In this document: positions 1,103 through 63,260 of the stretch, one piece after another
Layout: every line of letters begins with the position of its first letter
Position numbering within the stretch: position 1 is the stretch's first letter
Origin: Holophagales bacterium
Lineage (GTDB): Bacteria; Acidobacteriota; Thermoanaerobaculia; Multivoradales; Multivoraceae
NCBI GenBank assembly: GCA_009837885.1
Contig: VXSP01000045.1
Coordinates: 325,526-389,525 of the forward strand
Reading direction: 5' to 3'
Length of the DNA stretch: 64,000 nucleotides
Translations under genes and position numbers: made by a program
Notes under the pieces: generated by a model
What the model was told of the DNA's origin: nothing
What the model saw: the letters and a program-made list of their open reading frames with translations, nothing else
Database searches by the model: none

Positions 1103-4100
1103 ATGGATACGAGAGTCTTGTGCGCGGCGCGGCGTTTCGCCGCGGGCTGCGTGTTGTCCATGGGTGGCGTTGGGGCTGGTTACGGACAGATCGTGATCAA
1201 CGAGATCATGCAGAACCCCAGTGCTGTCAACGACAACCAGGGCGAGTGGTTCGAGCTCTACAACGCGGGGAGTGAGACGGTCGACCTGAACACCTGGACG
1301 ATCAAGGACGATGGCAGCAACACGTTCACCATCTCCAGCAGCACGGAAATCACTGCGGGCGGTTACCTCGTCTTCGGAATCAACGCGACGACATCGTCCA
1401 ACGGGGGCGTCACGGTCGACTACGACTATCCGAACGGCTTCTCTCTGAGCAACGGCGACGACGAACTCGTGCTTCTGGATGGCACAAGCACGGAGCAGGA
1501 CCGCGTCAACTGGGACGGCGGACCGAACTTTCCCGACCCGAACGGAGCCTCGATGGCGCTCAAGGCGACCGACCTCGACAACAACGTCGGTTCCAACTGG
1601 TGCGAGGCGACGACCAGCTACGGCGACGGCGACAAGGGCACGCCCGGCGCCGCGAACGACTGTCCGACGGCGCCGGTGGACTTCACGGGCGCCATCTATG
1701 ACATTCAGGGGAGCGGTGCCGAAAGCCCCCACGTTGGCGCCAAAGTCACGACGAACGACAACGTAGTGACCGCGGTAGGCGCGGGCGGCTTCTTCATCCA
1801 GACCCCAACCGCGGCCAGCGACAGCGACGCCGACACCTCGGACGGGATCTTCGTTCTCTACGACGGAACGACGACGATCAACGCAGGCGACCAGGTCGAC
1901 GTGGTGGGCGAAGCCGAGGAGTTCTTCGGTTTCACCCGGATCAACGCCACGATGTCCATTACCGATGCGTCGGTCACCGTCGACGCCAGCAACCAGACGT
2001 TGCCCGATCCGGTGGCTTTCGGCGCGACGGTGCCTTCGGGTGACCCAGCGAGTCCCAGTTGCGCGATCGAGTACGAGTGCTATGAGGGCATGCGGATCCG
2101 GATCGCGTCGGGCACGGTGAGCAGCGGCAGCCAGTTCTTTCGTAGCGACCCGGTTGCCGAGATGTACATCACTCCCACTTCGTCGCGCGCGTTTCGGGAG
2201 AAGGGTCTCGAGTATCCGGGCGACACGACGAACACGAACATCCCCGTTTGGGACACGAATCCCGAGCTCTTCGAACTCGACCCGAACAAGCTGCGTGACG
2301 AGAACGAGTCCTGGGTGCCCGGGACGGCGTTTTCGGCAACGGGTGTCCTCGGTTACGAGTTCGGTGGCTATGAACTCTGGCCGACCGAGTTGACGCGCCT
2401 CACCGCAGCCACCGCTCTGCCACGACCGGTCCGGCAGCGAAGGGCGGGCGAGGTGTCGGTCGCGTCACTGAACCTGCTGAACCTGAACGCTTCGGCCGGG
2501 GACTACGACACGAAGCTGGTCAAGCTGTCCCGCTACATACGTGAGGTCTTGCGATCTCCGGACGTCATCGGCATCCAGGAGGTCTTCACGATCGAAGCAC
2601 TGACCGCGCTGGGCAACAAGATTCGAACCGATGGCGGTCCTACGTACACGGCGTACGTCGAAGTGGGCAACCAGCCGACCGGGGCGAACGTCGGCTTCCT
2701 TGTGCGCTCGGGAGTCACGGTCGACGCGGTTACCCAGCACAACAAGAGCGAGACGTTCGTCAACCCGACAACGACCAACAACGACATCCTGCACGACCGG
2801 CCGCCGCTGCAGCTCGATGCGTCCGTCACCGGCATCGAGTTCTCGGTGATCGTCATTCACAACCGCTCGTTCATCGATGTCGACACCGATCGGGTGCAGG
2901 TTAAGCGCCTGGAACAGGCCGAGTCCGTAGCAGCCCTGGCTCAGGCGCGCCAGGACTCGAAGCTGATCATCGTCGGCGACTTCAACGCGTATCAGTTCAC
3001 CGACGGCTACTCCGACATCGTCGGCGTGATTTCGGGCGACTTCACGGCCAGTGAGAGTAAACGTCCCGGAATGGACCTGGTGAATCCGAACCTCAAGAAC
3101 CTGGTCGCGGATCTGGAAGCAGCGGAACAGTACTCCTACGTGTTCCGGGGCAACGCCCAGGCGCTTGATCATGCTCTGGTCAATGCAGAGATGCAGCCGA
3201 GCGTGGTCGAGATGGTCTACGCGCGGGGCAACGCGGATGCGGCGGAAGGCGAGGAGGAAAACGCGGGCTCAGCTCTCTACGCCTCCGACCACGACGGTTT
3301 CGTGGTGTTCCTGTCGGCGCCGGGTCGTGCGGCTCCGCAAGCGCCGGGCGATCCGGGTGGCGGCACACCGCAGACAGCGGATCTGGACCTCGGCGCCGAA
3401 AGCCAGATCGTCTCGAACAGCATGGTTCGCTACGACGTCAGTGTCGAAAACGAGGGTCCCGGCATCGCTCGTGACGTCGTTGTCATGAGTTCCTTCTCGG
3501 GCGGCGTCGCCCCAGTGGAGGCGAGGACCTCCGGCTGCGAGGAGGATCCGGGTGGCGTACCGGAGTGCAGTCTCGGCGACATCCGGGTCGGAGAGTCCGC
3601 CTCGTTCAGGATCAACGTAGACACCGGCGGCGCCAGTGAGGCGTCGCTCCGGTACAGCGGCTCCATCGTCAGCGACACGTCGGATCCGACGCCGGAGGAT
3701 GACGATATCGACATCTCCCAGCCGCTCGGTCCGCCGAACATTCCCAGCGATCTCGTGGCGACGGCGATCAGTTCGACCGAGATCGAACTCCGCTGGAAGG
3801 ACAACTCGAGCGTCGAGACCGGCTTCGAGGTCTTCCTTCAGGGTCCAGGCGACTCGAGGCTGCGGCTGATCGGGTCGGTGCCCCGGAACACGACCTCCAT
3901 GATCGTCGCCGATCTGGTGCCCGACATCAGGTACAACTTTGCTGTCGAAGCACACAATGGCCCGCTGCGCTCGGGACAGACGCCGAAGGCAACCGCGACG
4001 ACATGGTTCTCGGACGCAGCCGGCTGTGCTGATGATTCCGTGCTCTGCGTCGGGAGCTTTGAGGTCGAGGTCGAGTGGACAGCGGCCGACGGCAGGACGG

Positions 4101-20491: not shown

Positions 20492-21226
20492 ATGATCGAT
20501 CTGCACTACTGGCCGACGCCGAACGGCAAGAAAGTCACGATCCTGCTCGAGGAGTGCGGGTTGCCCTACCGCATCGTGCCCTGCCGGATCGGCTTCGGTG
20601 ACCAGTTCAAGGAAGAGTTCCTGGCCATCTCGCCGAACAACCGGATGCCGGCGATGGTCGATCACGAGCCGGCCGACGGCGGTGAACCGATCGCGCTCTT
20701 CGAGTCCGGCGCGATCATGATGTACATCGCCGAGAAGGCCGGCCGGTTCTACCCTCAGGATCTCCGTGCCCGCCACGAGGTGAACCAGTGGCTCATCTGG
20801 CAGATGGCGAACCAGGGGCCGAAGTCCGGCGAGTGCGGTCATTTCCGTCGCCTGCGCGACACGGAAGGCGACCAGAGCTACGCGGTGCGCCGCTTCACCG
20901 ACGAAGTGAACCGCCTCTACGGCGTGATGAACAACCGCCTCTACGACCGGCGTTACCTGATCGGCGACGAGTACACGATCGCCGACATGATCTGCTATCC
21001 GTGGACGGTTCGCTGGGAGGACCAGCAGCAGGACATCGAGGAGTTTCCGTACTTCAAGCGCTGGTTCGAGGAAGTCGGTGCCCGTCCGGCGGTCCAGCGG
21101 GGCATGGACGTCTCGAGCGGCGAGGCGATCGACTACGCGAACCTCTCCGACGAAGAACGCGAACGCCTGAAGAAGCTGCTCTACAACCAGCGCGCCCGGC
21201 CGGCGCCCGAGGGCGGGCTGCTGTAG
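20492..21226 (+). CDS. yfcG: Nu-class glutathione S-transferase (YfcG-like disulfide reductase)
   Basis: MIDLHYWPTPNGKKVTILLEE...ISPNNRMPAMVDHEPADGGEPIALFESGAIMMYIAEKAG is very close to the E. coli YfcG N-terminal pattern. Confidence 0.85.
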   Translation: MIDLHYWPTPNGKKVTILLEECGLPYRIVPCRIGFGDQFKEEFLAISPNNRMPAMVDHEPADGGEPIALFESGAIMMYIAEKAGRFYPQDLRARHEVNQWLIWQMANQGPKSGECGHFRRLRDTEGDQSYAVRRFTDEVNRLYGVMNNRLYDRRYLIGDEYTIADMICYPWTVRWEDQQQDIEEFPYFKRWFEEVGARPAVQRGMDVSSGEAIDYANLSDEERERLKKLLYNQRARPAPEGGLL

Positions 21227-21248
21227 CGGGGCGCCGTCGGACGCACCC

Positions 21249-21426
21249 GCCCGCGTCGCGGCCCGAGGGGTCAGCTCCCAGGTGACGCTCGCGCTTGAGA
21301 GGAGATGGAAGGGGTTGCGCTCGCTCCGCTTCACTCGCTCCGGTTGGGCGTCGGTTGGTGGAGTGTCGTCGGGCGTCGCTCGTTCAGAGGCACCTGGGAG
21401 CTGACCCCTCGGGCCGCGACGCGGGC
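21249..21426. repeat. Perfect 36-bp inverted repeat flanking a 106-bp spacer
   Basis: Left arm 21249..21284 (GCCCGCGTCGCGGCCCGAGGGGTCAGCTCCCAGGTG) is the exact reverse complement of right arm 21391..21426. It lies in the convergent intergenic region between the GST and sulfotransferase genes. Confidence 0.9.
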
Positions 21427-21456
21427 TGGACATCGGTGGACCGCACTGCGCTTCAG

Positions 21457-21483
21457 ACTGGGTGCGCCGGCGTCCTCGCCGGC
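21457..21483 (+). repeat. 27-nt palindromic intergenic element, copy A
   Basis: ACTGGGTGCGCCGGCGTCCTCGCCGGC. It contains a GCCGGCG-N4-CGCCGGC hairpin (one mismatch in this copy). Confidence 0.8.
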
Positions 21484-21505
21484 CTCTTGAGGATCGTGCG
21501 AGGCG

Positions 21506-22426
21506 CTAGCCTCGCTCCTTTGCGAATGCGACTGTGCCGCGCAGCTCTTCGTAGGAACTGTGACCCGTCGCCGGTTTCACGATCCGCTGCCACTCTCGAT
21601 CCCAGACCTCGAGGACTTCGCGCGGTACTTCACGGGAGCCTTCTCCCGACTTTCCCTTGCGGACCTTTGTTGTGGTGCCGGAGGCGGGGAGGCCGCAGGG
21701 GGCGTTTCGGGCGTTGCGGACCAGGTGGTCGTCGAACTTCGAGCTGTGTTCGCGCATGAAGCCGATTGACGCTTGCCGGGTCGCGATCTCGATGTTGGGG
21801 TGCTCCGGGTCGAGCTTGAGGAACGCCGCGACGCGGGCGGTGGCGGCGGGGAGGTCGGCGACGATGTCCTCGAAGCAGAGCCAGAGGGTCTCCGGGTCCA
21901 GGCGCTCCGGCCACCAGGACACGAGGTGTTCCCAGTAGCGGCCGCTACGGGTGCCGTGGAAGATGAAGTCGAGGGCGAAGTCGCGGATCGAGACGGTCCC
22001 GGGCTCGAACACCCAGCCGCTGAAGAAGTGGAAGAAGGAGACGAGCGAATCGACCGGGTCGCGGACGACGAAGATGTTGCGCCCACCTTTCGGTGCCAGT
22101 TCCCGGCTCAGGTGGGTCTTGAACGCTCTGGGCTCGGCCCGCTGGTGTGCGTCGAGGTCGAGGCCGATGTCGTGGGCGACTTCGAGCCAGGGGACGACTT
22201 CCGTGATCTCGTCGAAGTCCATGTCGCCGCCGGTGCGGAGCCCGTGGACGATCTGCTGCATCAGGGTCGTGCCGGCCTTGGGATAGGTGGCGATCAGGAT
22301 GTCGCTGGGCCGCAGACTGAAGTCGAGACCGCGCCGTACTCCTTCTCGTGTGGCGAAGCCGGCCATGCGCCGCCTGATGCCCTCGACCGTAGTGGCCCGG
22401 TGAGGCGTCACGGCGCTGTCGCTCAC
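21506..22426 (-). CDS. Sulfotransferase family protein
   Basis: PAPS-binding 5'-PSB loop TYPKAGTT, FKTH, and the 3'-PB region VVRDPVDSLVSFFHF. The GTG 22426 start is in a GTGA overlap with the xth stop. Alternative ATG at 22366. Confidence 0.8.
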   Translation of the reverse strand: MSDSAVTPHRATTVEGIRRRMAGFATREGVRRGLDFSLRPSDILIATYPKAGTTLMQQIVHGLRTGGDMDFDEITEVVPWLEVAHDIGLDLDAHQRAEPRAFKTHLSRELAPKGGRNIFVVRDPVDSLVSFFHFFSGWVFEPGTVSIRDFALDFIFHGTRSGRYWEHLVSWWPERLDPETLWLCFEDIVADLPAATARVAAFLKLDPEHPNIEIATRQASIGFMREHSSKFDDHLVRNARNAPCGLPASGTTTKVRKGKSGEGSREVPREVLEVWDREWQRIVKPATGHSSYEELRGTVAFAKERG

Positions 22427-23232
22427 CCGAGTACCTCGGCCGAAAGGTCGACGCCGACCGGGCAGTGGTCCGAGCCGGTCACGTGCGTCAGGATGAACGC
22501 CCGCTCGACGAAACGCATCGCGGCCTCCGAGGCGAGCACGAGGTCGATCCGCCAGCCGACGTTGCGCTCGCGGGCCTGGAAGGCCTGCTTCCACCAGCTA
22601 TAGCGCACCGTGTCGGGGTGCAGGGTCCGGAAGGTGTCGATCCAGCCGGCGTCGAGCCAGCGCTGGACCTCGTCGCGTTCCTCCGGCAGGAAGCCGGAGT
22701 TCCTCGCGTTGTCCTTCGGGCGCGCCAGGTCGATCGGCTGCGGCGCCGTGTTGAAGTCGCCGATGACCAGGACGCGATAGCCGGCGGCGCGGGCCTGGTC
22801 GAGCTGGGCGAACAGGGCGCGGTAGAAGCCCAGCTTGTAGGGCACGCGGCTGTTGTCTCGCTTGCTGCCGCTGCCCTTCGGGAAGTAGACGTTCGCCACC
22901 AGCAGTTGGCCGAAGAGAGCCAGTTGCAGACGGCCCTCGGCGTCGAAGCGCGGTTCGCCGAGCGAGGTGCGGACCCAGGCCGGCTCCAGGCGGGAGTAGA
23001 GGCCGACGCCGGAGTAGCCTGGGCGCTCGGCGCTCGAGAAGGAGGTGTGCCAGCGCGTGGGCCGGCGAAGCTCCGGCGCCAGTTGCCCGGCGCGGGCCTT
23101 CGTTTCCTGCAGGCCGACGATCTGAGCCCGGCTCTTTCCCAGCCAGTCGAGGAAGCCCTTGCGCCCGGCGGCGCGCAAGCCGTTCACGTTCCAGGAGACG
23201 ACGCGGATGCGACGGCGCTTCCGGGGGCTCAG
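22423..23232 (-). CDS. xth: Exodeoxyribonuclease III
   Basis: VVSWNVNGLRA, GLQETK, IGDFN and SDHCPV motifs. The first ATG/GTG/TTG (23187) would delete the conserved SWN. The proposed start is CTG 23232 in a CTGA overlap with the upstream GNAT stop. Confidence 0.85.
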   Translation of the reverse strand: MSPRKRRRIRVVSWNVNGLRAAGRKGFLDWLGKSRAQIVGLQETKARAGQLAPELRRPTRWHTSFSSAERPGYSGVGLYSRLEPAWVRTSLGEPRFDAEGRLQLALFGQLLVANVYFPKGSGSKRDNSRVPYKLGFYRALFAQLDQARAAGYRVLVIGDFNTAPQPIDLARPKDNARNSGFLPEERDEVQRWLDAGWIDTFRTLHPDTVRYSWWKQAFQARERNVGWRIDLVLASEAAMRFVERAFILTHVTGSDHCPVGVDLSAEVLG

Positions 23233-23870
23233 GTGCGGCTCCGCTTCCCGGCGCCCAGGTCGTAGGACATGATCATCATGTCGCGGGTGCGCCCGGAGCG
23301 GTCGATGACCCAGTCGGTGAGCAGCGCCTCGGGCGAGAACCCGAGGCGCTCGAACACCCGGCGTGCTCCAATCTGCTCACGCGTCATCTGCGCTACCAGC
23401 TTGAGCAGACCCAGCTCTCTGGCCGTCTCGAACACCCGCTCGGTCAGCACGTGGCCGAGCCCGCAGCGGCGATGGGCCTCGGCGATGATCACGCGGATCT
23501 CGCCGAGGTGACTCATCCAGTGCAGGCCTCGAAGGTTCAGGCTGCCGTAGCCCACCAGCTCGCCTTCGTAGTGGGCCAGGGTAGTGAAGCGGCTGCCGGT
23601 GTCGGCGTCGTGGATCCATCCCTCCACCACGTCCGGATCGGTCAGGTCCGAGCGCAGGAACTGGAGGTCGATCTCGGGCAGGGCGCTGGCGAGCGAGACG
23701 ATGTCGTCCCGGTCGGCAGGGCGCAGGCGGCGCAGGTCGTAGGTGCGATCGCCGCACTGGACCTGGTCGACGGATTGGGTGCTCACGGGCCGCTCGGTCG
23801 TGCCCGGGTGGCGCGGCCGCGCCACCCGTGCCCCAGTCCGCGCGCCCGTCATTGGGTGCGCGGATGGCAA
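23229..23870 (-). CDS. GNAT family N-acetyltransferase
   Basis: Acetyl-CoA motif A region: IIAEAHRRCGLGHVLTERVFETARELGL..KLVAQM...N..ARRVFERLGF. The start is uncertain (ATG 23870, or GTG 23783). Confidence 0.75.
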   Translation of the reverse strand: MPSAHPMTGARTGARVARPRHPGTTERPVSTQSVDQVQCGDRTYDLRRLRPADRDDIVSLASALPEIDLQFLRSDLTDPDVVEGWIHDADTGSRFTTLAHYEGELVGYGSLNLRGLHWMSHLGEIRVIIAEAHRRCGLGHVLTERVFETARELGLLKLVAQMTREQIGARRVFERLGFSPEALLTDWVIDRSGRTRDMMIMSYDLGAGKRSRT

Positions 23871-43719: not shown

Positions 43720-43746
43720 ACTGGGCGCGCCGGCGTCCCCGCCGGC
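43720..43746 (+). repeat. 27-nt palindromic intergenic element, copy B
   Basis: ACTGGGCGCGCCGGCGTCCCCGCCGGC, 14 nt after the pyrC stop. Hairpin GCCGGCG-TCCC-CGCCGGC. Confidence 0.8.
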
Positions 43747-44591: not shown

Positions 44592-44717
44592 GGTGAGTAT
44601 CTCCCCGGGTTTCGGGCGGCTACGCTACCTTGCCATCCGCGCGCCCCACGAAGGGGCGCACGGAGTGGGACGCGGGTGGCGCGAAACGCGCCACCCGGGT
44701 TCAGCGCGGGAGGCAAG

Positions 44718-48021: not shown

Positions 48022-48816
48022 CTACTCCGGAAGGGTGAACGTGAGATCGAGCGTCGCGGCGAGCCCGTCGAGCAGCGTCACGCCGGACCGCATCGTGCCG
48101 AGACGTTCGTGCCACGCCTCGATCGTGTAGGTGCCGGCCGGGAGCCCGGGAATCTCGAACGAGCCGTCCGGCCCGGAGACGGCGAAGTAGGGGTGGCTGA
48201 AGACCCCGACATAGCTCGACATCCACGGGTGGACGTCGCACTTGATCCGGAACGCCGGCTCCTCGTCGGTGAACGAGAACGTGGCCTGCTTGATGGCCGC
48301 CGGCATGGCCCGGTTGAAGGGGCGGTTGACCTCGGACAGCGAGTGGACGTTGTGGAGCAACTCGTCCGAGTTCAGCACCTTGAGCTCCTGGCCCACCATG
48401 ATGCCTGCGACGCGGGGCGTGTAGCGGCAGCCCTGCTGGTCGATCACGGGCGGTTCCGCCGGCGGGTAGGGCCCCTGTGGAACGTTGTCGGCGACGTAGA
48501 CGAGGACGTTGGCCAGGCCGGCCTGATCGTCGACCGCGAGGATCTCCGGATAGACCGGCTCCGTGTGCTTGGCGGCGCAGGCGGGATCGGCATGCATGTT
48601 GAGCGGCCGGAGTTCCGGCACCTCGCCGTCGAAGCGAACGACGCCGGCGATCGAACTGTTGCCGAGGGGTTCGGTGGGTGTGGCTTCGGGGGCTGAGGGA
48701 GTGTCGCCGCCGGAGTGCTCCGGGGCATCGCCGGCGCAGCCGGCCAGGAGGAAGGCGAAGGGAAGAAGGGCCGTGGAGAGGGCCAGCGGAAGCGTAGTTC
48801 TCGATGCGCAGATCAT
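48022..48816 (-). CDS. Cupredoxin (amicyanin-like type-1 Cu site) lipoprotein with C-terminal carboxypeptidase-regulatory-like domain
   Basis: Lipobox LLAGC. Candidate Cu ligands: LLHNVHS (His) and KCDVHPWM (C-x2-H-x2-M, as in amicyanin). C-terminal GSFEIPGLPAGTYTIEAWHE. Paralog of 52397..53113. Confidence 0.65.
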   Translation of the reverse strand: MICASRTTLPLALSTALLPFAFLLAGCAGDAPEHSGGDTPSAPEATPTEPLGNSSIAGVVRFDGEVPELRPLNMHADPACAAKHTEPVYPEILAVDDQAGLANVLVYVADNVPQGPYPPAEPPVIDQQGCRYTPRVAGIMVGQELKVLNSDELLHNVHSLSEVNRPFNRAMPAAIKQATFSFTDEEPAFRIKCDVHPWMSSYVGVFSHPYFAVSGPDGSFEIPGLPAGTYTIEAWHERLGTMRSGVTLLDGLAATLDLTFTLPE

Positions 48817-52396: not shown

Positions 52397-53113
52397 ATGA
52401 TTCCGAAGCAGACGATTCGCGTCTGTGCCGTTCTTCTCGCCTTCGCCCTGGCTTCCTCCTCGGTTGCGCTCGGCGGCACGATTGTCGGCAAAGTCACGTA
52501 CGAAGGCCGGACGCCCCCGCAACGCCCGATGAGGATGGACGCGGACCCCAAGTGCGCCGAGAAGCACAGTGGCACGGTCCTCGACCAGACCTTCATGATC
52601 GGGGATGGCGGCGCCTTCGCCAACGTCTTCCTGGTGATTACCGAGGGCCTGGACGGGAAGTCGTTCGACACGCCTTCGCAGCCGGTGGTCATGGACCAGA
52701 ACGGCTGCATCTACACGCCACGCGTCATGGGCATCCAGGTCGGGCAGCAGTTCAAGGTGAAGAACTCGGACGGCCTGCTGCACAACGTCCACTCCCTGTC
52801 CAAGGACAACCCCCCGTTCAACCGGGCGATGCCGGCCAGCGTGACGGAGGCCGACTACAGCTTCGACAAGACGGAGCGCTTCCGCATCAAGTGCGACGTC
52901 CACCCCTGGATGACGTCCTGGGTGACGGTCGTCGATCATCCGTTCTACGCGGTTTCGGGCGCCGACGGCAGTTTCCGCATCGAGAATGTTCCGGCCGGCA
53001 CCTACACGATCGAGGCCCGGCATGAGTTCGAGAGGTTCAGGATCTACTCGGAGACCGTCGAGGTCGGCGACAGTGGCGAAGCGACGGTGAACTTCGTCTT
53101 CAAGCCGGAGTAG
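52397..53113 (+). CDS. Cupredoxin (amicyanin-like type-1 Cu site) with carboxypeptidase-regulatory-like domain, secreted
   Basis: Start placed at ATG 52397, after AAGGAG (MIPKQTIRVCAVLLAFALASSSVALG). LLHNVHS and KCDVHPWM motifs. C-terminal GSFRIENVPAGTYTIEARHE. Confidence 0.65.
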   Translation: MIPKQTIRVCAVLLAFALASSSVALGGTIVGKVTYEGRTPPQRPMRMDADPKCAEKHSGTVLDQTFMIGDGGAFANVFLVITEGLDGKSFDTPSQPVVMDQNGCIYTPRVMGIQVGQQFKVKNSDGLLHNVHSLSKDNPPFNRAMPASVTEADYSFDKTERFRIKCDVHPWMTSWVTVVDHPFYAVSGADGSFRIENVPAGTYTIEARHEFERFRIYSETVEVGDSGEATVNFVFKPE

Positions 53114-57234: not shown

Positions 57235-57261
57235 ACTGGGTGCGCCGGCGTCCCCGCCGGC
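57235..57261 (+). repeat. 27-nt palindromic intergenic element, copy C
   Basis: ACTGGGTGCGCCGGCGTCCCCGCCGGC, 28 nt after the coxII stop. It sits inside a pair of ~45-nt imperfect direct repeats, each beginning GGCCGCRAGGCCGGTTCC (57214 and 57291). Confidence 0.8.
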
Positions 57262-61970: not shown

Positions 61971-62201
61971 GGGGCCGGCAGTGTACCGCCGGAAGCTTCG
62001 GCTGCACCCGCCCGTTCCGGGCCTCAGGGGAGAGGGTCCCAGCGGGCTGGGCGGCGTAGACGTGCGTGCAGGCCCAACAGTGCATCGTCCTGGAGCCTTT
62101 GGCGGCGCAGTCTTGGCGGGTTCTGGTCCTTGTCGACCGTCTAGCCACCGGGAACTCATGCACCGACCTTGTGTTCTAACAGAATACTGTAAATTTAGTG
62201 A

Positions 62202-63260
62202 GTGCTGCTCCTGAGCCAGAGACCCTTGCGAGACAGAGATGGCGATCGGGCGCTCTTCACGGGTCGAGAGCCTGAGCTCGATCGCCTACTGCGAGCGTCC
62301 CGAGTTGGATTCAACGCCATCGTCTTGGGTGATCGAGGTGCAGGTACTAGCTCGTTGCTGGCTCGACACGCTTCCCACCTCGAAGGCCGGGGCGGTCGAG
62401 TGTGCCTCGTGACGGGAACCGCGGTCGACTCGATGCGTGGGCTCGCGGAAGCGATCCGACTCGCTGCCGAGGGAAGGCGGACTGTCGGCCGCGTTCCACC
62501 GGCTCAGGAACGGGGAGAGGACGAGCAGTCGGTACTCGGCAGGTTGATCCACGGTGACCCGCAGTCCTTGGGCCGGCTGCGTGACGTGTGCTTCGAGTTG
62601 GAGGAGTCCAACAACAGTGGGCGGCTGACCGTCATTCTCGACAATGTGCTGCGGCCAGAGATGGTCCACGGGCTCTTCGGCCGGTGCCGGGACGAAGTCT
62701 GGGAGTTACCAACGCGATGGGTGATTGCGGGGCGAGCAGATCGGCGCAGCCAGTATCTGAAGCCGCCGGCCGACTCCTTCTTCGACACTGAGGTGTACGT
62801 CGGAGCTCTTGAACCGGGAGTAGCGCGAGAACTGGTCCTTGCGCGCCTGAAGTCAGCCTTGCCCGAAGAGCGTGTCGACGCGGAACGAATCCGGCGCCGG
62901 CTTGACCAGATCGTGGAGCGCGGCGCGGGGAATCCCCGGCGGCTCTTGTCAGCGGCCAGGGACGTGCTCCTTAGTACCCAGGAGGAAGCGGAGAGCGGCG
63001 ACTCTGCCCTCGCCGCCGCTGCGTCGCTAGGCAAGACGGAGTTTGCTGCACTGCACTACTTGATGGACAGGGGCCCCGCGAGCGCGTCTGACTCGGAGTT
63101 CCAGGCAGACCTTGGAGTGACCCGTTCGCGTGCCACCCAGGTCCTGAAACGACTCGAAGACTCGAATCTCGTCACGGTCTTCGAGACGCGAACCGGCCGC
63201 GGCAGGCCGCGGAAGCTCTATCGTTCGATCGGCAGCGCGAGTGCGGAGGATCCTGCATGA
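62202..63260 (+). CDS. ORC/Cdc6-like AAA+ protein with degenerate P-loop and C-terminal winged helix
   Basis: 352 aa. FTGREPELDRL precedes the P-loop GDRGAGTSSL (Thr where the Walker-A Lys is expected). Walker-B-like LTVILDNV. Sensor-2/lid-like GAGNPRRLLSAARDVL (compare Cdc6 GDAR). C-terminal wHTH: ADLGVTRSRATQVLKRLEDSNLVTV. More A/T-ending codons than its neighbours. Confidence 0.6.
   Translation: MLLLSQRPLRDRDGDRALFTGREPELDRLLRASRVGFNAIVLGDRGAGTSSLLARHASHLEGRGGRVCLVTGTAVDSMRGLAEAIRLAAEGRRTVGRVPPAQERGEDEQSVLGRLIHGDPQSLGRLRDVCFELEESNNSGRLTVILDNVLRPEMVHGLFGRCRDEVWELPTRWVIAGRADRRSQYLKPPADSFFDTEVYVGALEPGVARELVLARLKSALPEERVDAERIRRRLDQIVERGAGNPRRLLSAARDVLLSTQEEAESGDSALAAAASLGKTEFAALHYLMDRGPASASDSEFQADLGVTRSRATQVLKRLEDSNLVTVFETRTGRGRPRKLYRSIGSASAEDPA

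Follow-up and report, generated by a model that had tools for sequence, protein, structure and literature searches.

Why should a perfect inverted repeat of 36 bp stand between two convergent bacterial genes? The question is raised by a stretch of 64,000 nucleotides from a Holophagales bacterium (assembly GCA_009837885.1, contig VXSP01000045.1, positions 325,526 to 389,525), which we call the window and whose first nucleotide is position 1 in what follows. The repeat lies past the end of a glutathione S-transferase (GST) gene (20492-21226, + strand), which ends 22 nt 5' of the left arm. A sulfotransferase gene (21506-22594, - strand) is found downstream of the repeat and is convergent with the GST gene. 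Here, we show that these 36 bp form the closing helix of a single member of a dispersed family of hairpin repeats, which are non-coding and ~190-210 nt long.

The two arms, at 21249-21284 (GCCCGCGTCGCGGCCCGAGGGGTCAGCTCCCAGGTG) and 21391-21426, are reverse complements at 36 of 36 positions and are separated by a spacer of 106 nt. A first, sequence-only reading of this DNA had described this exact repeat between convergent genes, and direct comparison of the sequences confirms it. The distances which that reading gave, to the GST stop codon and to a 27-nt palindrome resembling repetitive extragenic palindromic (REP) sequences, 30 nt past the right arm, also agree with our positions. When imperfect pairing is allowed, the arms widen to 44 nt (21246-21289 and 21386-21429, 93% complementary). 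The 36-mer has no third occurrence in the 64-kb window beyond the two arms, and none of 100 dinucleotide-preserving shuffles reproduced the match. Either strand is predicted to fold very stably, at -173 and -151.5 kcal/mol, with z-scores of -7.05 and -6.6. A search of the window for further copies of the 279-nt intergenic region returned none except the 27-nt REP-like element.

Could such a repeat be a product of assembly? The locus reads identically in an independent assembly from ENA (L002). Another ENA contig breaks off 16 nt into the right arm, and two Logan contigs (k=31) end in the left arm after exactly 30 nt (k-1), as assemblers would at a genuine inverted repeat of 31 nt or more. Elements homologous to this one and built alike are present in closed chromosomes of 4.4-5.4 Mb from metagenome-assembled genomes (MAGs; OZ... 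records). At this locus in another NCBI MAG (L001; GCA_009842435.1, VYFK01000276.1; ~3915-4020), a gap of 10 N is followed by ~90 nt of poly-G/C junk and then by a duplicated 20-nt overlap within the right arm, and no sulfotransferase gene is called there. Here, the hairpin has led to faulty assembly or scaffolding. Hence, the repeat is real, and an artefact is excluded as a sufficient explanation.

The repeat is also not confined to this locus. The sequence-only reading had advised looking for additional copies, and BLAST and profile searches with the unit found them in relatives. A scan for an 18-mer of the inner arm, with one genome per species, gave at least about 50 true loci, many of them as an inverted pair ~125 nt apart. 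From genome contigs, BLAST and iterated nhmmer searches retrieved at least 48 full-length copies, whose arms and loops are 80-94% identical. At least 22 further true loci, many of divergent subfamilies, came from metagenomes scanned with two invariant motifs of the loop. The family thus comprises at least about 70 full-length copies, and the distinct intergenic loci number no fewer than roughly 22-25. The element is oriented, since its profile scores ~165 bits in the forward direction and ~57 in reverse. The window itself holds one full copy and one solo left arm of a divergent subfamily (62005-62045, + strand, CACCCGCCCGTTCCGGGCCTCAGGGGAGAGGGTCCCAGCGG; nhmmer with the family profile, E=5e-4), which, judged from its sequence, is a decayed second copy. 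The presence of this degenerate arm and of the many copies in relatives refutes the fallback proposed at the outset, i.e., a single-copy, unusually long terminator.

All the true matches among those listed belong to MAGs of Acidobacteriota, with record titles naming Thermoanaerobaculia, "Candidatus Multivorans", Holophagales or simply Acidobacteria bacterium. The affiliation with sponges is based on record titles and isolate names, many of which point to sponges; the label "ENGE20" presumably refers to a sponge-microbiome study. Matches to the 18-mer in Streptomyces, Nocardia, Bifidobacterium, Acidimicrobiia and others were rejected: they have unrelated surroundings, are missed by the family profile, and recur as conserved blocks across related genera, apparently in coding regions. 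No true match was found in the plasmid, phage and viral-contig collections searched. Rfam gave no match for the whole window at gathering thresholds, and only chance-level matches (E of 1.2 to 6.1) for positions 21100-21600 at E values up to 10. Our literature search found no paper on the hairpin element, nor on "Candidatus Multivorans" in sponges, and the family is apparently previously undescribed.

How is the element built? Its core spans 21244-21430, and semi-conserved extensions carry it to about 21231-21442 (positions of its parts are given on the + strand). Conservation across the family covers at least the core, so that the boundaries drawn from the single sequence, at the outer ends of the 36-nt arms, were slightly too narrow. 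The 5' extension (21231-21243, GCGCCGTCGGACG), defined from family alignments, is rich in G; elsewhere in the family, short tandem repeats of this extension often come before it. The 5' side of the helix base (21244-21253, CACCCGCCCG; A2 columns 14-23) is nearly invariant family-wide. It is followed by a hypervariable mid-stem (21254-21266, CGTCGCGGCCCGA), complementary to 21409-21421, where the sequence differs even among orthologous copies while complementarity is kept, and by the inner stem (21267-21284, GGGGTCAGCTCCCAGGTG), which is conserved in the main subfamily and carries compensated changes in the divergent ones. Within the loop, the internal hairpin P2 (21287-21324) joins GCTCGCGC (21287-21294) to GCGCTCGC (21317-21324), with 6 of 8 positions paired in this copy; its own loop is purine-rich (TTGAGAGGAGATGG...), and compensatory changes affect three of the five pairs scored. 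The most conserved unpaired segment (21325-21345, TCCGCTTCACTCGCTCCGGTT) is C/U-rich and contains the invariant CGCTCCGG. Then come a part that is variable in the alignment (21346-21366) and a 3' loop segment with conserved columns (21367-21390, ...GTCGCTCG...), which includes a small hairpin made of CTC (21379-21381), GTTCA and GAG (21387-21389). The short internal repeats noticed in the original inspection of the loop are present, and two of them, GCGCTCGCTCC and CACTCGCTCC, are part of the most conserved motifs of the family. The 3' strand of the stem mirrors the first, with an inner part (21391-21408, CACCTGGGAGCTGACCCC) that pairs with the 5' inner stem, a hypervariable part (21409-21421, TCGGGCCGCGACG) that pairs with 21254-21266, and a conserved base (21422-21430, CGGGCTGGA). 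The helix base holds a family-wide C/T non-pair, and half the copies have G·T at another of its positions. Alignments also define the semi-conserved 3' extension (21431-21442, CATCGGTGGACC; family consensus ACGTCGGTGCCGAG), which in other copies is the 5' half of a further small hairpin. An outermost helix joining the two extensions, suggested by the single-sequence fold, was rejected, with at most 54% of the cells paired.

Pairing is a property of the family. In an alignment of 45 copies, 97.5% of the cells are paired and 15 pairs have changes on both sides; none of 500 shuffles reached the observed values, and slid registers came nowhere near them. A wider alignment of 47 sequences shows compensatory changes at 24 of 40 pairs, including the internal hairpin. 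These changes support part of one of the initial proposals, that of a structured RNA with a long, covarying helix. Because five copies have perfect arms of 34-36 bp, with differing mid-stems around the same 106-nt loop, the perfect stem of the window is the upper end of a family trait and not a singularity. Candidates for extra helices or pseudoknots in the loop were discarded, since the column pairs concerned merely follow the split between the main and the divergent subfamilies. The family alignment holds no conserved open reading frame (ORF) on either strand, including any for a small toxin-type peptide, and indels break the reading frame after ATG.

The copies were placed relative to genes, which we called heuristically from codon-position G+C content. 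Of the 22 loci that could be resolved, about 18 (~80%) have the element on the same strand as the gene upstream of it, and it starts 2-160 nt, typically 10-40 nt, past the stop codon of that gene. Local GC skew does not predict its orientation (33 positive, 36 negative, with skew over 8 kb as a rough proxy for the replichore). The upstream stop codon is TAG in 39 of 56 copies (~70%; e.g., 21224-21226 in the window) against 39% of 480 genes called at the same loci; orthologous copies are not independent in this count, and TAG still has the majority when counted per locus. Between stop codon and element there are often short G-rich units in 2-5 tandem copies (GGCGGA, CGTCGGA, or units of 20-24 nt with GCACCCGCC at their end), which repeat the 5' end of the element itself (L036:6906-6931, L077:5042-5066 on the - strand, L088, L144 and L085). 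The neighboring genes have no common theme (GST, ruvA, ruvB, a gene for an NYN-domain protein, aminotransferase genes), and some copies lie inside operons, e.g., ruvA-ruvB, and between co-directional genes. A terminator scan found no T-run after the hairpin, where the sequence past the right arm is TGGACATCGG, and a scan for sigma-70-like promoters found none in or before the element. At one locus (L105), the element occupies nearly the entire ruvA-ruvB spacer, and there it is therefore not an efficient terminator. Inverted pairs of copies were considered as a composite or autonomous element and set aside, the genes enclosed being ruvB and an aminotransferase gene; a profile search of ~600 kb of flanking DNA found no element halves enclosing a gene.

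Most of the loci are common to several genomes and form orthologous groups. The GST locus of the window has orthologs in three other genomes (L082, L086 and L015), and all four carry both the element and the REP-like palindrome; the mid-stem differs among them, with compensation. A ruvA-[element]-ruvB-[inverted element] locus could be compared in six genomes. In its deeper comparisons, the identity of the element is 80-84%, against 62-70% at codon position 3 and 85-93% at codon positions 1+2, and the spacers flanking the element are not alignable. Since the element changes far less than codon position 3, while the spacers cannot be aligned at all, it is under constraint. Every genome sampled at a given orthologous locus has the site filled, but the loci were selected by the presence of the element and these filled sites are uninformative on empty ones. 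We also looked for an empty target, in which the motifs of the two flanks would be joined, and found none. The sequence-only reading had seen no target-site duplication, and this holds across 65 copies placed in profile coordinates: left-right flank identity within a copy is at most 0.04 above that between copies, at any offsets. No conserved tetranucleotide directly abuts either end.

What, then, is the element for? We favor, with about an even chance of being right, the view that it is a palindromic repeat akin to the enterobacterial repetitive intergenic consensus (ERIC) and to Correia elements, co-transcribed with its neighbors as an RNA stem-loop in the 3' untranslated region (UTR) or between cistrons. 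The element would be transcribed as the 3' UTR or intercistronic spacer of the upstream gene, and the transcript would fold into a stem of roughly 45 bp capped by a structured loop. This stem-loop could be a barrier to 3'-5' exonucleases and/or a processing site for double-strand-specific, RNase III-type enzymes. The outcome would be to set the 3' end and the stability of the transcript, or to uncouple the cistrons. Template switching at quasi-palindromes is established in Escherichia coli, and the perfection of the stem found here, in spite of rapid mid-stem change, probably comes from arm-to-arm correction, by template switching or repair in the palindrome, plus selection for pairing. We infer transcription, folding and processing from the sequence and its comparisons. 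A further claim, that the family is a host-selected structured RNA module at the ends of coding regions and not a relic transposon, seems to us rather doubtful.

Several observations weigh against this co-transcribed stem-loop. At about four loci, the element is antisense to both neighbors, e.g., downstream of ruvB. Sporadic one-sided changes in the helix are about equally often of the G·U type and of the A·C type, so that wobble statistics do not single out an RNA strand; a single fixed G·T position accounts for most of the excess in a crude wobble count (71 versus 37). Identity is 89.4% between paralogs of one genome, 89.0% between orthologs and 85.3% between unrelated pairs, and at one locus with flanks ~90% identical, one genome has an element of the divergent subfamily and three genomes have the main type. 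There are also 5'-truncated, partial, internally deleted and recombinant (L047) copies, and one ruvA-ruvB spacer (L066:6197-6746) contains a full copy followed by two tandem 3' halves (profile positions 84-188) with a period of 180 nt. Given the likeness of paralogs, the subfamily swap and the truncated and recombinant copies, copies exchange sequence or get replaced at fixed sites. The family spread at some time in the past, and its copies still exchange sequence. Part of its conservation could therefore be at the level of the element, i.e., selfish, and not at that of the host.

Some of these features feed the main rival explanation, which we regard as somewhat unlikely: a selfish, non-autonomous DNA element without host function, whose hairpin would serve its own mobilization in single-stranded form. 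An enzyme of HUH/Y1 type (RAYT or IS200/IS605-like), or another enzyme, would act on it in trans, or it would spread by copy-to-copy conversion, and its position after stop codons would simply be where insertions are tolerated. Dispersed copies, many of them 5'-truncated or partial, the recombinant one, the replacement of a whole element between nearly identical flanks and paralogs as similar as orthologs all fit such a history. So do the absence of target-site duplications, as HUH-type transposition predicts, the perfection of stems despite rapid change, and a second small repeat which, in two subfamilies, is found at one and the same place within the element. On the other hand, the orientation of the copies tracks the upstream gene and not the local GC skew, neither end is directly flanked by a conserved tetranucleotide, and the Pfam-scanned genes by paired copies are housekeeping genes and not transposase genes. 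Nor does any pair of element halves surround a gene in the ~600 kb of loci, and the orthologous sites sampled, selected by element presence, are all filled and give no evidence of recent movement. A classical MITE (miniature inverted-repeat transposable element) of DDE type, with inverted repeats that are the transposase-binding ends of a deleted insertion sequence and with cut-and-paste movement, is very improbable. The sequence-only reading had put forward a MITE-like element, next to a structured RNA and a recombination or cruciform site as its other candidates, and much of the MITE-like description stands: the element is repeated, non-coding, small and intergenic, has no ORF, and has inverted ends in all full copies. 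Its inner arms begin with GGGGTC, which resembles the ends of the Tn3 family. What lacks support is the classical mechanism. The flanks of a copy are no more alike than those of different copies; conservation and pairing go ~25 nt beyond the GGGG, so that this is not the terminus; the internal hairpin covaries, which transposase binding does not require; and a hypervariable mid-stem is hard to square with a terminal repeat recognized by a protein. Moreover, no autonomous partner or transposase was found in the ~600 kb of flanks and no copies on plasmids or phages, and the copies are old ones at orthologous loci, oriented with transcription.

The remaining explanations account for less of the family. 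Structured small RNAs acting in trans, either transcribed independently or processed from 3' UTRs, with a C/U-rich loop that pairs with targets or binds a protein, appear improbable to us. They would give a meaning to the invariant single-stranded motifs CGCTCCGG and GTCGCTCG and to the purine-rich hairpin loop, and would agree with the covarying structure, the purifying constraint and the defined orientation. However, the scans gave no sigma-70-like promoter in or before the element and no U-tract terminator after it, Rfam has no matching family, a start only 2-40 nt past the upstream stop leaves little room for a promoter, and the candidate extra pairings of the loop only follow the subfamily split. 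The least probable by far is that the locus is merely a long bidirectional terminator for the GST and sulfotransferase genes, or a fold-back artefact of assembly. The convergent genes, the very stable folding on both strands and the short-read assemblies that break inside the repeat speak for it. Against it stand the other family members, which keep the 106-nt loop conserved although their loci are unrelated, copies within operons and between co-directional genes, the absence of a T-run, and the presence of the element in closed chromosomes and in independent assemblies of the locus. Termination alone is thus refuted as a sufficient explanation, although individual copies may act as terminators.

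If the elements are a host-selected RNA module, then the proximity to stop codons, the excess of UAG, the invariant loop motifs and a mid-stem that evolves fast and yet stays paired would all be functional. The module could couple translation termination to transcript processing, or provide a message-specific double-stranded tag for an RNase III-like or other double-stranded RNA-binding factor, and it would represent a new class of cis-acting 3' UTR elements in an uncultivated symbiont lineage. If the elements are selfish DNA instead, they would point to an unrecognized mechanism of mobilization that leaves no target duplication. Sponge-associated Acidobacteriota are uncultivated and their non-coding biology is known from sequence alone. 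In this context, covariation, constraint, the position after stop codons and the presence in operons make the family a candidate for post-transcriptional control in symbionts. It has practical uses as well, as a lineage marker and as a known cause of breaks in short-read assemblies and of junk-filled gaps in deposited MAGs. Finally, with its fast but perfectly compensated change in the mid-stem and its replacement of a whole element at a fixed site, the family lends itself to studies of the upkeep and exchange of long palindromes in the genomes of bacteria.

Other repeats are found near the element or inside some of its copies. The 27-nt REP-like palindrome (ACTGGGYGCGCCGGCGTCCYCGCCGGC), with a stem of 7 bp and a loop of 4 nt, occurs three times in the window, at 21457-21483, 43720-43746 and 57235-57261. 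The first of these is the one past the right arm, and the palindrome also follows the element at L086 and L015. The palindrome contains GGGTGCG, the complement of a CGCACCC in the 5' base of the element, which is why the single-sequence fold pairs the two. The second small repeat mentioned above is a family of ~68 nt with two hairpins (CCATCCGTGCGCCCG.TGACGGGCGCACGGACTGGTTC...GGTGGCGCGGATCGCGCCACC.GGGTT). It is present in the window at 23803-23851 (- strand) and 44654-44702 (+ strand), at L024:4272-4340, L016, L191 and L083, and at 13 further loci. In copies of the main subfamily (L024, L016) and of a divergent one (L191), it sits at the same point of the 5' strand of P2, and this shared insertion point suggests either site-specific insertion or an old long isoform of the element.

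The window contains further features. Inside the sulfotransferase gene, 16 nt at 21825-21840 (GCCGCGACGCGGGCGG) are identical to the outer right arm, i.e., the reverse complement of 21247-21262 (BLAST within the window, E=0.003). The coding stretch is conserved in orthologues and the arm variant is specific to the genome of the window. The match may be due to chance, or the gene may have been the template for the mid-stem of the arm. An imperfect inverted repeat at 48107-48467 and 52668-53025, with blocks of 185, 90 and 35 nt that are 73-91% complementary and ~4.2-4.8 kb apart, probably consists of inverted paralogous genes. A short A+T-rich stretch (62140-62200, ttctaacagaatactgtaaatttagtg) stands out against a genome with 67% G+C; it lies ~100 nt past the solo arm remnant and before an ORF that starts at 62202.

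How does the family compare with known systems? ERIC elements, also called IRU, are imperfect palindromes of 127 bp that occupy apparently transcribed positions and probably affect the flanking message in the form of RNA hairpins. ERICs resemble the family described here in being non-coding imperfect palindromes with a conserved interior, of moderate copy number, located between genes beside unrelated neighbors, highly conserved between species at the same loci, and without a known transposase. The host differs, since ERICs are found in Enterobacteria or Vibrio and our elements in Acidobacteriota. Also unlike ERICs as described, our elements have ~190-210 nt, a stem of ~45 bp with a hypervariable middle, and a start tightly after the stop codon. 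The Correia elements of Neisseria offer a second parallel. Known as CREE or NEMIS, they have terminal repeats of ~26 bp, a TA duplication, an IHF site and ends that form promoters. Like them, our elements have inverted ends around a conserved core and would form a long RNA hairpin co-transcribed with the neighboring genes. CREE bind RNase III, which cleaves or protects them, and alter the expression of adjacent genes (PMC2649163); we propose a mechanism of this kind for the hairpin family. There is also evidence of recent mobilization of CREE (PMC2649163). In contrast, the hairpin family has no duplication, no promoter-like site and no sign of recent movement, with loci that were chosen by the presence of the element.

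REP sequences and their doublets of about 70-110 nt, the REPINs, share with our elements the form of a hairpin-forming intergenic repeat, vertically inherited, without target duplication and kept as a hairpin. REPs have 20-40 bp and a GTAG or CGTC tag at one end (PMC3733652). Our elements differ from them by a unit of ~190 nt, a conserved structured loop of 106 nt and ends that no tag abuts; CGTC does occur in the semi-conserved extensions, at variable positions. They also differ from REPIN-RAYT and IS200/IS605-type systems, in that the 33 to 36 split relative to 8-kb skew, a rough proxy, reveals no bias in orientation with the replicating strand. Finally, the attC sites of integrons, e.g., the VCR of Vibrio, are recognized by structure rather than by sequence, and they resemble our elements as imperfect palindromes placed right after ORFs, in a fixed orientation and with high similarity within a genome. 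They differ in that the core sites of attC (RYYYAAC and GTTRRRY) are not visible at the ends of our elements, which in all copies are CACCCGCC ... GGCTGGA. Nor do our elements form cassette arrays: their neighbors are housekeeping genes such as ruvA and ruvB, and there is one full copy in 64 kb. In kind, the family belongs with the known bacterial palindromic intergenic repeats (for general reviews, see PMC2229807 and PMC10969869).

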